DNA from: a virus
Lineage: Duplodnaviria > Caudoviricetes
Direction: 5' to 3' (one strand)
Length of the DNA stretch: 64,000 nucleotides
Virus record (IMG/VR): IMGVR_UViG_2901966883_000003
Shown piece by piece: positions 2,861 through 62,151 of this stretch. A program made the position numbers and the translations under genes. Each line of letters opens with the position of its first letter. The stretch's first letter is position 1. The notes beneath the pieces were generated by a model, which was given only the letters and a program-made list of their open reading frames with translations, had not been told where the DNA came from and made no database searches.

Positions 2861-2920
2861 TTGCAACGGTGGGGCTCGAACCCACATCATCCTTTGCTCT
2901 ACCATTTGAGCTACGTTGCT
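2861..2920 (-). ncRNA. tRNA-like element lacking the anticodon arm
   Basis: GCAACG/CGTTGC acceptor, D arm GCTC-AAATGGTA-GAGC, 10-nt linker AAAGGATGAT, T arm GTGGG-TTCGAGC-CCCAC. Confidence 0.75.
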
Positions 2921-3225: not shown

Positions 3226-3299
3226 TGTCATAGTAAGGACTTGAACCTTGCTGCTCTCGTGTTAAGGACGAGTGTGTTACCCGCATACACCATATGACT
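3226..3299 (-). tRNA. Atypical tRNA-like gene with TTA at the anticodon position
   Basis: GTCATA/TATGAC acceptor, GTGT/ACAC D stem, CTCGT-CCTTAAC-ACGAG anticodon arm (C33 instead of U33), AAGG-TTCAAGT-CCTT T arm. Confidence 0.6.
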
Positions 3300-22949: not shown

Positions 22950-23215
22950 TTCATTTTTCATAAGGTATTAATAACCTTATCACGTATCTATCAGAGTTAA
23001 TAAATACATGTAGTTACCCTTCGACAATGTTATCTCAGCTTATTAACAAGGTTGACTAGCACATTAACCTTATGCTTGTTTACAGTGCCTCCATAGAGCT
23101 AGAAACTAGGGTATCATTTCTAGGTATGTTCACTGAAATAACGTAGTTCTCTAAGAACTTAGTCTAGACAACAAAACTATTTAGCTACCTACTTTAGTAG
23201 GTGGTTACTGTTGAC
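22950..23215 (-). ncRNA. IscB omegaRNA (HEARO-like) and element end
   Basis: Begins GTCAAC..ACCACCTACTAAAGTAGGTAG hairpin; contains AGACTAAG..CTACGTT, CCTAGTTTCTAGCTCT and ACATTGTCGAAGGG motifs typical of IscB omegaRNAs. Confidence 0.82.
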
Positions 23216-51854: not shown

Positions 51855-51976
51855 GAATACTTGAAAATACTCCTTTATCTTATGGCTACAACATAGCATG
51901 AGATAAGAAAACCAACGTGAGAGCTGTGAGAGGGTTTAGGGTTCAAATCATAGCCATATTTAATATATCGCAGTCC

Positions 51977-52095: not shown

Positions 52096-52284
52096 TTGAA
52101 AGAAATTATTCAGCTCCGTTGCGACATTAAGAAAATTATGAATAAAATATCAGTTTTAGCAAATAAGGCTGACTTAGATATTCATGATATGGCAGACCTA
52201 GAACGTTACGCAAAAACTTTGAATAACCTAGTAAATGCACTACATACATTAGAATTGAGAGAGAGTGATAGCTATGGCGAATAG
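52096..52284 (+). CDS. Small hypothetical protein
   Basis: TTG start behind AAGGAG. Confidence 0.55.
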   Translation: MKEIIQLRCDIKKIMNKISVLANKADLDIHDMADLERYAKTLNNLVNALHTLELRESDSYGE

Positions 52285-53062
52285 AGAAGGTATATGCGTA
52301 TTCTGCCACAATAAAAAGAGTTTGATTGATAGCAACAATACTCTTTTATCTGAAAATGGTTTCGGAGTTTGTCGAAGTTGTTCAAATCGAAATGTTGAAC
52401 TAGAAAACAAACAATCATTTATTGATATGTGTCTTCTACTCAACATGCCTTTCTTGATTGACAAATACGAAAATACGGTAGAAAGCGGAAAGAAAAATGT
52501 AGCATGGTCTACTTACAAATCACGCATTAGCAAGGTTTGGACGGATGGCTTTGCTAGTTCCATTTTTGAATACGAAGACCAAGATAAACAAGAAGGATTC
52601 GTAATAACTGATGAAATGAAAGCTCGTTGGGGTACGGGCTATGAAACTAGCGAAATTGAAGTTTTGGAATTGTCACTACGAAACCTTTATGCAATTAAAG
52701 AACCAGCAACCAAGTTTGAGGTTGAAAAATACATCTCCAATGTCAAGTTAAAGATTGCTTTAGATAGAGCGTTTGAAGAAAATGATGTGAAGGCTATCCC
52801 AGCGTTACGTAAAGCGTACGAAGATGATTGTAAGACATTGGGACTAGAGGCAGTATTAAATACCAAAGAAGATAAGATTGAAAGCGTGGGCGAAAGCATT
52901 AGACACTGGGAAGCAACAAAGCCTGTTCCTACTCGTAAAGAGTATGAAGACGTAGATGGATATGCCGAATACTTAACTAAGTGGTATATCACCCCACTCA
53001 AACGCAACTTCGGTATGGCAAGCGAAGAAGAGGTGAATGAATTGTATGCAGGGACAGAGTAG
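52265..53062 (+). CDS. Probable terminase small subunit / packaging-associated Zn-finger protein
   Basis: CxxC...CxxC, RWG.GY; immediately upstream of the large terminase. Confidence 0.55.
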   Translation: MIAMANREGICVFCHNKKSLIDSNNTLLSENGFGVCRSCSNRNVELENKQSFIDMCLLLNMPFLIDKYENTVESGKKNVAWSTYKSRISKVWTDGFASSIFEYEDQDKQEGFVITDEMKARWGTGYETSEIEVLELSLRNLYAIKEPATKFEVEKYISNVKLKIALDRAFEENDVKAIPALRKAYEDDCKTLGLEAVLNTKEDKIESVGESIRHWEATKPVPTRKEYEDVDGYAEYLTKWYITPLKRNFGMASEEEVNELYAGTE

Positions 53063-55331
53063 TTATCTCCAAAAGAAAGCCGAAAATTTCGCTGAATGGA
53101 TAGGTTTTTACAGACAAAACCCACATCGTTTCATGGAAGACTATTTTGGTACTCATCTGCATCCATTTCAACGTTTCTTATTCTATATGATGAATAAGGA
53201 CGATAAATTTATGTATATCGCAGCACGTGGTCGATTTGGTCGTCTAGTCAAGTAATTGGTTAGATTATTAGTGCGAAATTAAGCTGGAAACCTAAGTCGA
53301 AAGATATGGTAATCAGAACCGAAGGCTAGTTTTAAAAGACTAGACAGGGGCAGAGCATAGCAACTGAAACTCACTGAGAATATAATGTTGCCACGAGGTC
53401 GCACCACCCTAGCAAGTCAAGTTGTGGGTGAAAAGATATGCCATTCCTAGTCGAAAGATTAGGGCTGAGAGATAAAAAACTCTCAAGCTCATATGAGTAA
53501 ATAGCAAGGTGAATTGATTTGCCTAGTTTAGTAGAAATATTAAACCGTAATCGCAATAGAAAACTGGAAGCCTAAGTCATTTGATAAGGTAATCAGAGTG
53601 GAAGGTTAAAGGTAATATGTTAACCACACGCAGAGCATAGTGGCTGAAACTTGTAAAAGAATATAATGCCACCAAGAGATTGCGACATCTAAACAAGTTA
53701 AGTTGTAGATGAAAAGATATGCCGAACTTATAGGAAACTATAAGAAATAAGAGATAAAAAGCTCTTATGGTAACAAACTGAAATCGTTCTTGATTGCGTG
53801 GTATTGCATTGTTCGCTGTGTTTTATATCCAGGAACGAACATTGCACTTGCCGCTGGTACAAAAGGACAGGCTGCAAAAATAATATCTGAAAAGATTGAC
53901 AAATTCTATGATGAAAATGCAGCGTTGCGATTTGAAATAGGGAATAGACGAGATAATATCAAAACAAGTTATAACGAAGCATACGTTAAGTTTAAAAACG
54001 GTTCTAAGATACAAGCTGTAACTTCTAACGATAATTCACGTGGTATTCGTGCCAATATCTTAATTGTTGATGAGTTCCGTATGGTTAACAAAACAGTATT
54101 AGACAAGGTTTTAAAGCCATTCTTGAACGTAGTTAGACAACCAAGATATTTAACTTTGCCAGAATACAAAGATTATCCAAAAGAAGAAAACAAGCAGATT
54201 TATATTTCATCTGCATGGTGGAAATCACATTGGTCTTGGGACGAATTTCAAGCATATTTAAAGAAAATGCTTAAAGGCGACAAATATTTCGTAGCAGATT
54301 TGCCATATCAGTTATCAATACATCATGGTTTGTTAACAAAACAGATTGTTAATGATGAAAGAACCAGTGATAGTTTCGACCAAAATGGTTTTGATATGGA
54401 ATATGAGGCTATATTTGTTGGTGAAAATGACAAGGCTTACTTCAAATTAGACAAGTTAAATAAGATTAGAACATTAAATAAGGCTTTTATTCCACCTACA
54501 AGTCGAGAATATTTAGAGAATAAGAACTTATCACAACCTAAAAAGTTGTCAAATATGCCTAAACGTAGGGATATTGATGAAATAAGAATTATCTCACTAG
54601 ATATTGCTCTTATGGGTGGTAATAAAAACGTTAAAAATGATACTTCCGCATTTACATGTTTCAGATTAATAAGAGATGGTGATAGCTATCGTAGAGAGGT
54701 TGTTTACCTTGAAAGTATTAACGATAGTATCTCCAGTCAGAATTTAGCTATTAGATTGAAACAACTATATAACGACTTCCAAGCCGATTATGTAGTAATG
54801 GACGCAAACGGAAATGGTTTAGGTGTTTTTGACGCATGTGCAACAGTTCTACACGACCAAGAACGTGATGAAGATTATCCAGCTTGGGCAAGTATGAACG
54901 ATGAAGCAACTAATGAACGTACAAAAACACATGGTTTACCTATTGTATATACGGTTAAGGCTTCCGCAGCATTTAACAATGAAATTGCTCAATCACTAAA
55001 TTCAGCTATTGAAAGTGGGAAATTGAGATTACCAATTAACCACATTGAAAAGCGTGAAGATTTAGTTAACTCTGGTGGTTTCTTAAAGAAGTCAGTAGAG
55101 GAGCAACAAAAAGAATTGTATTCATTTAACCAAGCAACAGCTCTAGTTAATGAGTTGGTTAACCTAGAATACGAGGTGCGTGAAGGTAAAATCCGTATCA
55201 AAGAAGTAGGTACAACAACAAAAGATAGATATAGTTCTATCGCATACGGTAACTTCTATGCTAATGAGTTGGAAAAAGATTTGAGAGCAGAAGAAGCTAG
55301 TCGTAATTTATTGGATTTTATATTTGTATAA
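53046..55331 (+). CDS. terL: Terminase large subunit, spliced from three exons (53046-53231, 53505-53510, 53781-55331)
   Basis: Joining the exons gives YIAARG-QG-KSFLIAWYC (Walker A); then LIVDEFR Walker B, YISSA, SLDIA and KDRYSS nuclease motifs; ATG at 53037 is an alternative start. Confidence 0.92.
53232..53504 (+). ncRNA. Group I intron 1 (273 nt, no ORF)
   Basis: Exon ends in U, intron ends in G; P7-type GCAGAGCATA / AAGATATGCC; core CTGGAAACCTAAGTC...GGTAATCAG shared with intron 2. Confidence 0.88.
53511..53780 (+). ncRNA. Group I intron 2 (270 nt, no ORF)
   Basis: IGS GATTTGCCT pairs with 5' exon AGGU (U-G at the splice site) and 3' exon AAATC; terminal G; same core motifs as intron 1. 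Confidence 0.9.
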
Positions 55332-55344
55332 GGTAGGTGAAGAT

Positions 55345-56832
55345 GTGAGAGGACAAAGAAAAAAGCCAAGACGTAATTTTAGAGCTAACCAAGCAAAACG
55401 TGAAGAATTTGCAAATATTGTAGCTGACCCTAAAGCTGGGTTAAAACCTACAACCACTGGAGCTACTGAAAAGAGTAACGTTGCTACTTATCTGCAACGA
55501 CCATATGATAATGCACCACAGATAGCTGCGACTATCCGAGATAGTGTTAATAAGTATGGTGTTTTGGCTAAAGTAATTGATTACTATCAATCATTACCCA
55601 CATACAATTTCGCAATTAAACCTATCTTAGGTAATAAAGTCTATGACATAGACACAGTGAACATGCGTAATGATTATATAGATATTGCATACGCATTAGA
55701 ACAATACAATATCAAGTATTACGCACCAATATTCTTTAGGGACACACTTATAGAAGGAGTTACTTTCTACTACAAAATAGAAGACTCAGACGGAATATCA
55801 TTTATGAAGTTTCCTATTGAATGGTGCAAAATTCGTGGTATTGAAAATGGTGTTTATCGCTTTATGATAGACGTCACAAAATTCAAACAAGACTTTTTAA
55901 CAACATTACCAGAAGAATTGCAAACAGCTTATGAGCAATATCAAAATGGTAATGCAACTGATGAAAACTCTTGGTACAACAACAGATATTACTTTGTATC
56001 AGAAAAAGGTGTGGCATTTACATTTGACTCTAGTGCATTAGATTATGGTGGCTTAGCAGTTTCACCGTTTGCTGGTGTATTGCTAGATATTATGTCTGTG
56101 GCACAAGCTAAAAACAACGTCGATATTAAAGATGGTATTGACACCACTCGTATTTTACATTCTAAAATTCCAGTCGATAATGACGGTCGTATTCTTATGA
56201 CAGCTAAGGAAGCTAAAGTTTACGACAGTGCAATTCGTTCAAGACTTCCAAAGGGTGTAGTCAATGTTACAACCCCTACTAAATTGGAAAACGTTCCTTT
56301 AACCAATTCTGGTAATACAAATGCTCTTGATACAGTTAAAAAATCAACCGAGCAACTATTCTTTGATGTTGGTACACCAGCCCCATTATTCGGTGGCGAT
56401 ACAACAAGTGCCAACATTGTCAAAACTTCCATTCAAAAAGACGCAAATTGGGTTTATACAAACCTATTCCCATTATTAGAGAACTATTACAACAGTGAAA
56501 TAGCACAAGTTAAGACAAAAGGTAAGGTTAAGTGGGCTATTAAGTTCGTAAGACAAACAACTTTCACCTTAAAAGATGATGTGGCATTACAAAAAGACCA
56601 GTTGTCTTATGGTGGTTCACGCTTGAATTACCTTGCTGCTAATGGTTTCTCACCTTCTGAAATAGTTTCCCAATTAAGTTTTGAACAACAAGCACTAGGT
56701 ATTGACGATTTGATGATTGTAAAACCAACATCTAACACAATCTCGGCTAATGAAGTGAGTGAGCAGGGTCGAGGTAGACCAGAAACGGATAATCCGACTG
56801 ATGATACTGATAGGTTAGATGGCGAGAAATGA
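55345..56832 (+). CDS. Portal protein
   Basis: ~495 aa after the terminase; FPIEWCKI.G, EQGRGRP tail; GTG at 55345 has AGGT RBS (track start 55324). Confidence 0.78.
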   Translation: MRGQRKKPRRNFRANQAKREEFANIVADPKAGLKPTTTGATEKSNVATYLQRPYDNAPQIAATIRDSVNKYGVLAKVIDYYQSLPTYNFAIKPILGNKVYDIDTVNMRNDYIDIAYALEQYNIKYYAPIFFRDTLIEGVTFYYKIEDSDGISFMKFPIEWCKIRGIENGVYRFMIDVTKFKQDFLTTLPEELQTAYEQYQNGNATDENSWYNNRYYFVSEKGVAFTFDSSALDYGGLAVSPFAGVLLDIMSVAQAKNNVDIKDGIDTTRILHSKIPVDNDGRILMTAKEAKVYDSAIRSRLPKGVVNVTTPTKLENVPLTNSGNTNALDTVKKSTEQLFFDVGTPAPLFGGDTTSANIVKTSIQKDANWVYTNLFPLLENYYNSEIAQVKTKGKVKWAIKFVRQTTFTLKDDVALQKDQLSYGGSRLNYLAANGFSPSEIVSQLSFEQQALGIDDLMIVKPTSNTISANEVSEQGRGRPETDNPTDDTDRLDGEK

Positions 56833-58940: not shown

Positions 58941-59933
58941 ATGGCAATCGAAATGAAAGATTTAGCAAAATTAGCTAAAGACGCTTATCATAATCGCAAC
59001 CTTGAATTTAACAACGTTTCTGCTTCTGACGCAATGCGTAACGCTGTTAAAGACGCTTTGGGTGGCGAATTTACATCAGTATCTTGGGGAAAGAACAAAT
59101 GGGAAGTATTTAGTATCTTACAAACAGCTTTAGATGTTGTTATCCCAGAACGTTTGAAGAACCAATTAGACGGTTTCGCAGACTACCGTACAGCTAACTT
59201 GGGCGACAAACCATTGTTCACATACAATGACCCTAAAGCAGTTCGTGTAGGACGTATCGCTGGTGGTGCAAACGACATGCGTAGACAAACAATTACAGGT
59301 CGTTCATTCACAATCGAAACAGAATGGTATGGAGCAGCTGTATATGCTGAATTTGAACAATTCATGGCTGGAGATATTGATTGGACAGACCTTGTAAATC
59401 GTGTCGCTGACGGTTTCGTATCATTTATCGAAGAACGTATTGCAGAAGGTTTGGAACAATCATACACACTATTAGGTGCAAACGACAAAATTGAAGGTAG
59501 CTTAACACTTGATGGTCTTGTTAAGTTAGCACAACGTATCAAGATTAAGTCTGGTGGTAAAGAAGTTGCTATCTATGGTACAGCTGCTGCATTAGCTAAA
59601 ATCGCTGCTTTAGACAATGTTCAATTATACAGTGGCGACATGAAGAACGAACTTAACCAAAAAGGTTACTTAGGAATGGTTCGTGGCTTGAAATTAATTG
59701 AAATTCCACAAGCATTTAAGACAAACTCAGATGAATTTGCTATTGGTGATGACAAAGTTATTGTATTACCAGCTGGCGAAAAGATTGTTGGTGTTGTTAC
59801 AGAAGGTACAACAGAAGTGTACGAAGCAGACCAAACATCTAACACATCTATGCAATTAGGATTTGCAACACGTAGAAAACTCGGTGTTGGAGTATTGCAA
59901 ATGCGTGTTTACGGTATGGCTAAATTAGCTTAA
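58941..59933 (+). CDS. Major capsid protein
   Basis: 330 aa, position in the head module, strongly biased codon use. Confidence 0.8.
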   Translation: MAIEMKDLAKLAKDAYHNRNLEFNNVSASDAMRNAVKDALGGEFTSVSWGKNKWEVFSILQTALDVVIPERLKNQLDGFADYRTANLGDKPLFTYNDPKAVRVGRIAGGANDMRRQTITGRSFTIETEWYGAAVYAEFEQFMAGDIDWTDLVNRVADGFVSFIEERIAEGLEQSYTLLGANDKIEGSLTLDGLVKLAQRIKIKSGGKEVAIYGTAAALAKIAALDNVQLYSGDMKNELNQKGYLGMVRGLKLIEIPQAFKTNSDEFAIGDDKVIVLPAGEKIVGVVTEGTTEVYEADQTSNTSMQLGFATRRKLGVGVLQMRVYGMAKLA

Positions 59934-59948
59934 TTATTGTAAGCGATT

Positions 59949-59979
59949 ACATGGTAAAGGTTCGACTCCTTTATCATGT
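59949..59979 (+). ncRNA. 12-bp minihelix capped by a tRNA T loop
   Basis: ACATGGTAAAGG-TTCGACT-CCTTTATCATGT, 15 nt after the capsid stop. Confidence 0.6.
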
Positions 59980-60022
59980 TTAGAGATTTTGGCAAAACTA
60001 AGAGATAGGAGAGTGAGCTGTT

Positions 60023-60606: not shown

Positions 60607-62151
60607 CCATTAATAAAAATTATAATAAATTAAATAAAAGTCTATCAGAAAGCGTAAAAATATAGGTAGTCTTTAAGACAATAAATCCAAAACCATAAAA
60701 CGTCTTCATTTTAATATGAATATATATTGGCTTACTTCTATAAAATTAGTATAATATAGAAGATAAAATTATTATACCAATTTAGTGAAATAAAGTGAGG
60801 TGGCATATATGATTAGAACGCAAAAAGTAAGACTTTATCCAAATCAAACCATGAAGAAAGTTCTTGATGATTTATGTGATTATCGTAGATATTGTTGGAA
60901 TCAAGGGTTGGCTTTATGGAATGATATGTATGATAGTTCCTTAATTTTAGATGATAAAAAGCTGAGACCTAATGAGTACAAGGTGAGGAAAGAGTTGGTA
61001 GCTAATAAAGAAGATTGGCAATATCAATTATCTTCCAGATGTTTGCAGTTAGCGAGTGTAGACTTGGGCAAAGCGTGGGATAACTTTTTTAATAAGGCAT
61101 TACCAGATTGGGGCAAACCTAAATATAAGTCTAAAAAAGCTCCTAGACAAGGTTTTAAAACTGATAGAGCCAAGATTGTCAACGGGAAACTAAGACTTGA
61201 CAAACCACACAGAATCAAAACTTGGTATGATATTAAGTTTAAAGGTGCTAAGAGCTTAGATGGTGATTTAAAAGTTGTATCAATCTATCGTGAAAATGGT
61301 AAATACTGGGCTAGTTTACCTTTTGAAGTTGAAATAGCTAAGAAAGATAAAACTTGTAAGAAAACAGCAGTTGATGTTAATGTAGGTCATTTCAACTATA
61401 CCGAAGGTAAAGTTAATACATTGCCTAATCATCTAAAGAAACTCTATAAACGTATCAAACATTACCAACGTCAGTTGGCTAGAAAACGTGTTGTTAATGG
61501 AAAGAAAGCTACTCAATCGCATAATTATGTTAAAACGAGAGCCAAGTTACAACGTGATTATCGTAAAGTGGCTAATATCCAACATGATATTATTCATAAA
61601 TTTACAACTAAATTAGTAAGTGATTACGACAAAATCGTAATCGAAGATTTAGATGTGAAGAAAATGCAGATGACACACGTTGCTTCTAAAGGTTTACACC
61701 GTTCACAATTTGGTTATTTTAGGCAAATGTTGACCTATAAAGCTGATTGGTATGGTAAGGAAATAGTCTTAGCAGACCAATATTATCCAAGCACACAAAG
61801 ATGTTCTGAATGTGGATATATCAAGACTGGCGAAGATAAAGTTGGTCTTAATGGTAATCGTAAGCATGGAACAAAACATAACGAATATATTTGTTATGAA
61901 TGTGGTTCGATTATGGATAGAGATGAAAATGCAGTTATGAATTTATTAAATTTAGTAGCATAAAAATACAACGGGGTGGGCTACACCCTTATGCTATCAG
62001 AGCTAGTCAATGTCATTACCCTTTAGTTAGGATATGGGAATACTAGCGTTGACGGTAGTAAATAAAATCTAGGAAAGGAAAAACTATATTTCTTTCTAAT
62101 AATATAGAACTAATAACTATTGGTCTATATTATTCTACATTTTATATAGCG
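60607..62151 (+). mobile_element. Non-autonomous IS607/IS605-like tnpB element (ends approximate)
   Basis: AT-rich left end CCATTAATAAAA..., tnpB, ~190 nt structured 3' region ending ...TTTTATATAGCG; interrupts the head operon; no tnpA. Confidence 0.65.
60800..61963 (+). CDS. tnpB: TnpB-family RNA-guided endonuclease
   Basis: KVRLYPN N-terminus, AVDVN, VIEDL, YPSTQRCSECG, DRDENAVMNL; catalytic triad intact. Confidence 0.95.
   Translation: MAYMIRTQKVRLYPNQTMKKVLDDLCDYRRYCWNQGLALWNDMYDSSLILDDKKLRPNEYKVRKELVANKEDWQYQLSSRCLQLASVDLGKAWDNFFNKALPDWGKPKYKSKKAPRQGFKTDRAKIVNGKLRLDKPHRIKTWYDIKFKGAKSLDGDLKVVSIYRENGKYWASLPFEVEIAKKDKTCKKTAVDVNVGHFNYTEGKVNTLPNHLKKLYKRIKHYQRQLARKRVVNGKKATQSHNYVKTRAKLQRDYRKVANIQHDIIHKFTTKLVSDYDKIVIEDLDVKKMQMTHVASKGLHRSQFGYFRQMLTYKADWYGKEIVLADQYYPSTQRCSECGYIKTGEDKVGLNGNRKHGTKHNEYICYECGSIMDRDENAVMNLLNLVA

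Follow-up and report, generated by a model that had tools for sequence, protein, structure and literature searches.

Two putative group I introns six nucleotides apart in the Walker A motif of an SPbeta-like phage terminase gene

The gene for the large terminase subunit (terL) discussed here lies in a 64,000-nt stretch of viral DNA (Duplodnaviria; Caudoviricetes; IMG/VR record IMGVR_UViG_2901966883_000003), the whole of which is referred to below as the window. The gene is read in three exons separated by two intervening sequences, named intron A and intron B, and the exon between them is a micro-exon of six nucleotides (Table 1). The terminase is SPbeta-like both in its homology to YonF and in the gene order yonG-yonF-yonE-yonD. 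The closest named record is the 129-kb plasmid pMP1046B of Ligilactobacillus salivarius JCM1046, which is 97.8% identical over the terL region and has been published as a circular plasmid or chromid, with introns and terminase unmentioned (PMC4165912). We infer that the element is an SPbeta-like phage-plasmid of L. salivarius.

Table 1. Features of the terL locus, in positions of the window.
Feature	Position	Strand	Description
YonG-like gene	52265..53062	+	upstream neighbour of terL
terL exon 1	53046..53231	+	62 codons, ends YIAARG, last codon GGT
Group I intron A	53232..53504	+	273 nt, ORF-less, last base G; site A, after RG
Guide of intron A	53235..53245	+	53235-53238, P10 strand; 53239-53245, weak P1
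P7 of intron A	53355..53441	+	53355-53359 with 53437-53441; encloses P7.1, P3 3' strand and P8
Junction block	53486..53520	+	3' tail of A, micro-exon, P1 loop of B
Micro-exon CAAGGT	53505..53510	+	6 nt, Gln-Gly of Walker A
Group I intron B	53511..53780	+	270 nt, ORF-less, last base G; site B, after RGQG
Guide of intron B	53516..53526	+	53516-53520, P10 strand; 53521-53526, P1 with micro-exon
P7 of intron B	53635..53722	+	53635-53639 with 53718-53722
P7.1 of intron B	53640..53672	+	inside P7
P3 3' strand of intron B	53680..53684	+	inside P7
P8 of intron B	53686..53711	+	inside P7
terL exon 3	53781..55331	+	KSF... to stop; remaining ATPase and nuclease domain
Portal gene	55324..56832	+	phrog_2739; neighbour of terL

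Joining exon 1, the micro-exon and exon 3 yields a protein of 580 aa that is identical at 577/580 residues to an uninterrupted natural allele (P0124), and the start codon ATG 53046 reproduces the length of that allele, ATG 53037 being an alternative start. The uninterrupted allele matches the Pfam and PHROG terminase families; unlike it, the exons taken separately gave no Pfam match. The joined protein is 44% identical to YonF of SPbeta in an alignment that runs through the junction (ARGQGKS in the window, SRGQGKT in YonF), exon 3 shows 43% identity to YonF and other SPbeta-like terminases, and a search by sequence for a relative of solved structure found none. RG-x-GK is kept in 96/96 retrieved relatives with an intact motif match (RGQGK in 80/96), and since all 96 intact motifs read this way, the terminase needs both residues that the micro-exon encodes. 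An earlier note on this DNA had placed the end of exon 1, both introns, CAAGGT and the start of exon 3 exactly where they are found here. It had also held that splicing restores ARG-QG-KS in frame, which the alignment with the intron-less terL and the YonF homology across the junction bear out, and its further statements that the introns are homologous and without ORFs, and that two accurate splicing events are needed around a 6-nt exon in Walker A, stand as well.

Introns A and B are 69% identical over about 208 nt, and stop codons close each of the three forward frames in both; an ORF of 61 codons on the minus strand (53371-53556) was taken as chance. Excision of a group I intron begins when guanosine attacks the U.G pair in P1 and is completed by exon joining at the terminal G. 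Introns A and B would each leave by this route, with attack at the U.G pair of their own P1 and exon joining at their terminal G. The 5' splice sites follow a U paired in P1 (U53231.G53239 in A, U53510.G53521 in B), and the 3' splice sites follow the terminal G53504 and G53780, as set by single-intron alleles. P10 of A has four pairs with the first four micro-exon bases and P10 of B five Watson-Crick pairs with exon 3, while P1 of A is weak (U.G, G.U, G-C, U.G, G.U). A P3-P9 core with the P3/P7 pseudoknot was found in both introns. The Rfam group I scan proposed in the earlier note did return both introns as matches to RF00028 (A, 28.7 bits, E 4e-5; B, 22.7 bits, E 0.0025), at scores below the gathering score of 50 bits, so that a default Rfam scan misses both; RF00028 is a general model without the P7.1 insert that A and B carry.

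A group I model on 15 homologs had 93.9% of cells paired, with both sides changed in 36/61 pairs; shuffled versions never came as far and slid versions were at most 41% paired, both being generous controls because the homologs are related and intron B served to draw the model. Covariation in these homologs was seen in P3, P6, P6a, P7.1, P8, P9 and P9.1, and P4 and P7 were invariant, P7 with the standard guanosine-binding G-C pair. Among 20 copies of intron B, 10 of the 12 variable sites fall outside the modelled stems, where 53% would be expected (p about 0.03, calculated by hand); one of the remaining two keeps its pair and the other breaks it. This stem-avoiding variation fits continued selection for splicing. 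Introns of subgroup IA carry a P7.1-type extension, located after P7 and before the 3' strand of P3; those of IA2 are recognised by P7.2, an additional hairpin. P7.1 is present with covariation and an optional inner hairpin, and no clear P7.2 was seen; the P7.1 extension would place both introns in subgroup IA, where they appear IA1-like. We consider it probable (about 0.87) that the locus holds two group IA ribozymes at two homing sites six bases apart, one after each of the glycine codons of RG-Q-GK.

No further introns of the A/B family were found in the 64-kb window. Among its other elements are a HEARO RNA (RF02033, 117.6 bits) at 23010-23215 (-) and an IS605-type transposase/TnpB-like gene at 60800-62052 (+), which is inserted among head genes and followed by an Rfam Transposase-1 RNA at 61994-62052. 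ARAGORN called a tRNA-like gene at 3226-3298 (-) with anticodon TTA (ochre) and C at position 33, possibly degenerate, and a tRNA-like element at 2861-2920 (-) has an anticodon arm of only 5 nt in the Rfam alignment (41.7 bits). The T-loop-like motif GTTCRANTC occurs 15 times against 3.8 expected (59903-59980, 51941-51949 and 13 further window sites), one copy lying behind the capsid stop codon within an ARAGORN-called tRNA-like fold.

The boundaries of A and B are fixed by natural alleles, since empty, A-only and B-only forms occur. Among 35 loci, 12 carry A+B, two A(ORF)+B, nine A, three A(ORF), two B and four B(ORF), and three are empty; the window itself is part of this set, as are two contigs that count twice and one NCBI contig whose sequence at the locus equals that of the window, and the loci were found through exact-protein look-ups favouring split alleles and include related sequences that are not independent, so that these are allele counts and not frequencies. 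Loci checked by hand beyond the 35 comprise one double and three A-only alleles. The terL exons of the compared loci are about 96-100% identical across all allele classes, and the empty loci (3/3) read GGA CAA GGA, with A, not U, at both splice sites. Because near-identical phages carry 0, 1 or 2 introns, neither intron nor their pairing is needed. Among the other phage lineages surveyed, in scans partly biased to an intact Walker A, no A+B double was seen. When viral contigs were scanned for other doubles by DNA pattern, there was either no exact match to the junction or only chance matches that lacked an intron core.

Introns of the same family are found in terL at site A, at site B, one to two bases into the Gln codon, 28 codons downstream (ASG/TK) and at other positions, and range over Lactobacillales and more distant Bacillota phages. 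Some members depart from the usual intron ends. Site-A introns from Limosilactobacillus-type phages (L015:3226-3482; L027:3684-3933, on L. reuteri plasmid p53608_1; L052, L133, L134) appear to end in A, not G, at a boundary backed by P10, with a standard P7 and U instead of A as the last J8/7 base. A terminal A at the 3' end is known from a Coxiella intron. Introns one or two bases into the Gln codon (L026:3684-3935, on an L. ingluviei contig; L053, L055, L131, L138) have a 5' splice site without U (C-G or a reversed G.U) and a last base of G, A or U depending on register, that is, non-canonical splice sites in otherwise standard cores. The third hot spot, after ASG at about residue 90 (L055:2376-3500, L057, L072, L094, L102, L136-L138), often holds a LAGLIDADG-type ORF, and in L055 and L138 two introns lie about 80 nt apart.

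Some relatives of the window have a LAGLIDADG ORF in intron A or intron B, placed in its P1 loop. In the near-identical alleles L011 and L008, ORFs of 270 aa and 315 aa, respectively, start after the 5' splice site in this loop, ahead of the guide, and match LAGLIDADG_3 above its cut-off. Site-A ORFs are 44-53% identical among themselves and site-B ORFs 36-48%, against 28-36% between the sites, and the ribozyme cores are closest to introns at their own site in other phages, that of A with 87% identity to L023 (site A) and that of B with 79% to L132 (site B), so that A and B are not mutual closest relatives. Because ORFs and cores group by insertion site, A and B are to be seen as separate mobile introns. 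The 64-kb window contains no homolog of either endonuclease ORF; most likely its introns homed independently, each by means of an endonuclease of its own, and then lost these endonucleases. The endonuclease ORFs themselves (L011:1627-2439, L008:1790-2737) have an N-terminal region of ~50-100 residues before the two LAGLIDADG motifs, with a weak Myb-like match in those of site A, and the site-B ORF ends within the guide sequence of its intron.

The whole 549 nt could also be read as one nested or fused intron, or as a local tandem duplication, that is excised as a single unit. The 69% identity of the cores, a P7 common to both and a hybrid P3 of the 5' strand of A and the 3' strand of B that can pair at -3.2 kcal/mol speak for such a unit, which we nevertheless regard as extremely improbable: its removal deletes the Gln-Gly kept in 96/96 intact motifs, each intron is found alone exactly at its own site, A and B fall into different branches, and the native P3 helices are stronger (-7.9 kcal/mol in A, -6.1 in B). 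Three specific readings were also rejected. Tandem duplication disagrees with cores that are closer to same-site introns of other phages than to each other, a twintron with the coding 6-nt exon in between and with the occurrence of each intron by itself, and an IStron with the lack of a transposase/TnpB ORF in either intron, the IS605-type gene being 7 kb away.

Two separately homed introns raise the matter of how they came together. The junction block is present in 15/15 double alleles and absent from 15 A-only and 6 B-only alleles, and position 53726, beside P9.0 of B, likewise separates all doubles from 6/6 B-only alleles, while upstream sites in intron A recombine freely between allele classes. 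The doubles are not one clone, as 13 distinct cassettes were found among 14, with exon 3 differing by 0-2.9%. A(ORF) combined with ORF-less B occurs (L011, L212), and among the doubles none with an ORF in intron B was seen. The pattern suggests that the double allele arose once and spreads as a cassette. Either insertion should interrupt the target site of the other endonuclease, and repair from a single-intron donor should delete the neighbouring intron, so that doubles would form rarely. Once a double has formed, no crossover should fit in six bases, and the block could spread with the endonuclease of A.

The introns would no longer splice if terL were a dead gene of a cryptic phage-plasmid, to which the weak P1 of A and the description of pMP1046B only as a plasmid or chromid (PMC4165912) would be suited. 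This is very improbable, given that the exons and the portal and capsid ORFs are all intact, that variation in intron B avoids the stems, and that the 13 distinct cassettes among 14 doubles retain all splice signals.

For two active introns, the micro-exon has a double role, as 3' exon of intron A in P10 and as 5' exon of intron B in P1. P1 of B pairs with 5/6 micro-exon bases and reaches into the last two bases of A, including the terminal G, and thus overlaps P10 of A on the micro-exon; because the two helices exclude each other, the reactions of A and B must be sequential. In local folding, the splice-site P1 pair of B has a probability of 0.96 in the precursor and of 0.24-0.30 with A removed, and P1 of A has a probability of 0. 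Since the P1 hairpin of B dominates the precursor and reaches into the last bases of A, the models lean towards B being spliced first and A second; this order is predicted from secondary-structure models of short segments, outside tertiary docking, co-transcriptional folding and ribosomes. After B leaves, the micro-exon would be free for P10 of A and would be retained. Given its weak P1, A may be slow to splice or dependent on host help.

The order might even be built into the junction block, if the block was selected as part of a co-adapted ordered pair since the usual A tail would capture the guide of B. One tail type is found in 15/15 doubles and another in 15/15 A-only alleles, and placing the tail of L004 or L206 before B drops its P1 pair from 0.96 to 0.06-0.07 in folding; the site at 53726 is a further difference from the six B-only alleles. 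The A-only tails of L124 and L126, however, leave P1 of B at 0.90-0.96, and a single origin with no room for a crossover in the 6-nt exon explains the linkage without selection. We hold selection of the block to be rather unlikely, and equally so an obligate order in which the block forces B to go first and hand the six bases to A, with mis-ordering giving a terminase deleted by two residues. If true, such an obligately ordered pair would offer a natural model, from bacteria, of self-splicing reactions coupled by a micro-exon that both introns use.

The error to which this arrangement would be open is loss of the micro-exon by skipping. Cross-pairing for skipping by A is poor, as only two pairs form between its guide and exon 3, and the hybrid P3 is weaker than either native helix. 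The guide core of B, GCCUAG, serves naturally as the guide of the site-A introns of L016, L024 and L075, where the preceding exon ends like exon 1 of the window, and skipping by B is the more plausible of the two. In engineered tandem introns, the second intron skips via the first junction once the first intron has left, and distinct guides suppress skipping (PMC10136302). Splicing of B first and the different guide of A would both favour inclusion of the micro-exon. The skip product would lack two P-loop residues and is very probably inactive; the earlier note had likewise expected an in-frame, ATPase-dead product, with which the RG-x-GK kept in all 96 intact motifs agrees. Some leak skipping to a dead terminase is likely, as a cost and not a control.

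The earlier note had gone further and proposed skipping as a possible checkpoint, in which it would be tuned to give a dead, perhaps dominant-negative terminase until packaging suits. Skipping preserves the reading frame, the guide core of B is in use at site A in other phages, the stepwise route has been shown for engineered tandem introns (PMC10136302), and skipping is reported for terL of phage SIOphi (PMC11878797). Against this, near-identical phages have uninterrupted and single-intron alleles, both sites are filled in no other phage lineage surveyed, each intron also exists in a form that carries an endonuclease, as selfish homing elements would, and no sensor element turned up within the introns or close to them. 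These comparisons do not support the checkpoint, which is very improbable.

Tandem group I introns have precedents in phages. Staphylococcus phage Twort orf142 has the tandem introns I2 and I3 around a 23-nt exon with skipping (Landthaler and Shub 1999, as summarised in PMC10136302). [quoted passage not shown] Among Bastillevirinae, terL introns are described in SIOphi (three, ORF-less, IA2), phiAGATE and Moonbeam, so that terminase genes with two or three introns, like skipping in SIOphi terL, are already published (PMC11878797). That case concerns Herelleviridae terL with endonucleases annotated as HNH/VSR-like, in contrast to the SPbeta-like terL and LAGLIDADG endonucleases here. In Bacillus cereus group prophages, TMP-IVS1/2/3 and term-IVS1 are described as related IA introns adapted to their sites via P1 changes, with ORF-less and ORF-bearing forms, and an ORF inside P1 is reported for a recA intron; the endonucleases given there are GIY-YIG or HNH, and the passages on these introns report no 6-nt spacing (PMC2504315).

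Outside phages, the tandem introns of Coxiella burnetii 23S rRNA flank a 34-nt exon and show skipping (PMC10136302). There the host is an rRNA, the introns belong to different subgroups and the exon is more than 5 times longer than the micro-exon here. Organellar introns are usually spliced with protein assistance. Placozoan mitochondrial cox1 has a single-base exon between two group IB introns, with splicing intermediates seen (PMC5436844), and resembles the present locus in that an essential codon is built with a micro-exon of fewer bases than the guide pairings of the introns on either side. The placozoan case is organellar and fixed in the phylum, whereas this one belongs to a bacterial phage with a segregating series of 0, 1 and 2 introns. 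In the literature searched, which reached few subscription journals, the 6 nt are the shortest exon between group I introns that we found for any prokaryote, and no report of this terL locus came to light.

The locus shows a known phage habit in a more extreme form, not a new mechanism. It would reduce the spacing of prokaryotic self-splicing introns to six bases, too few for both guide helices to coexist, and in practice gene callers break terminase genes of this kind into fragments and default Rfam scans pass over them. According to PMC10136302, no mechanistic analysis of the natural tandem cases had been reported, and the 549 nt, with empty, single and double alleles, offer a natural substrate for asking in what order neighbouring ribozymes react and how they escape skipping. 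The locus also shows that two homing elements with necessarily overlapping targets can co-occur and, as the cassettes suggest, move as one.
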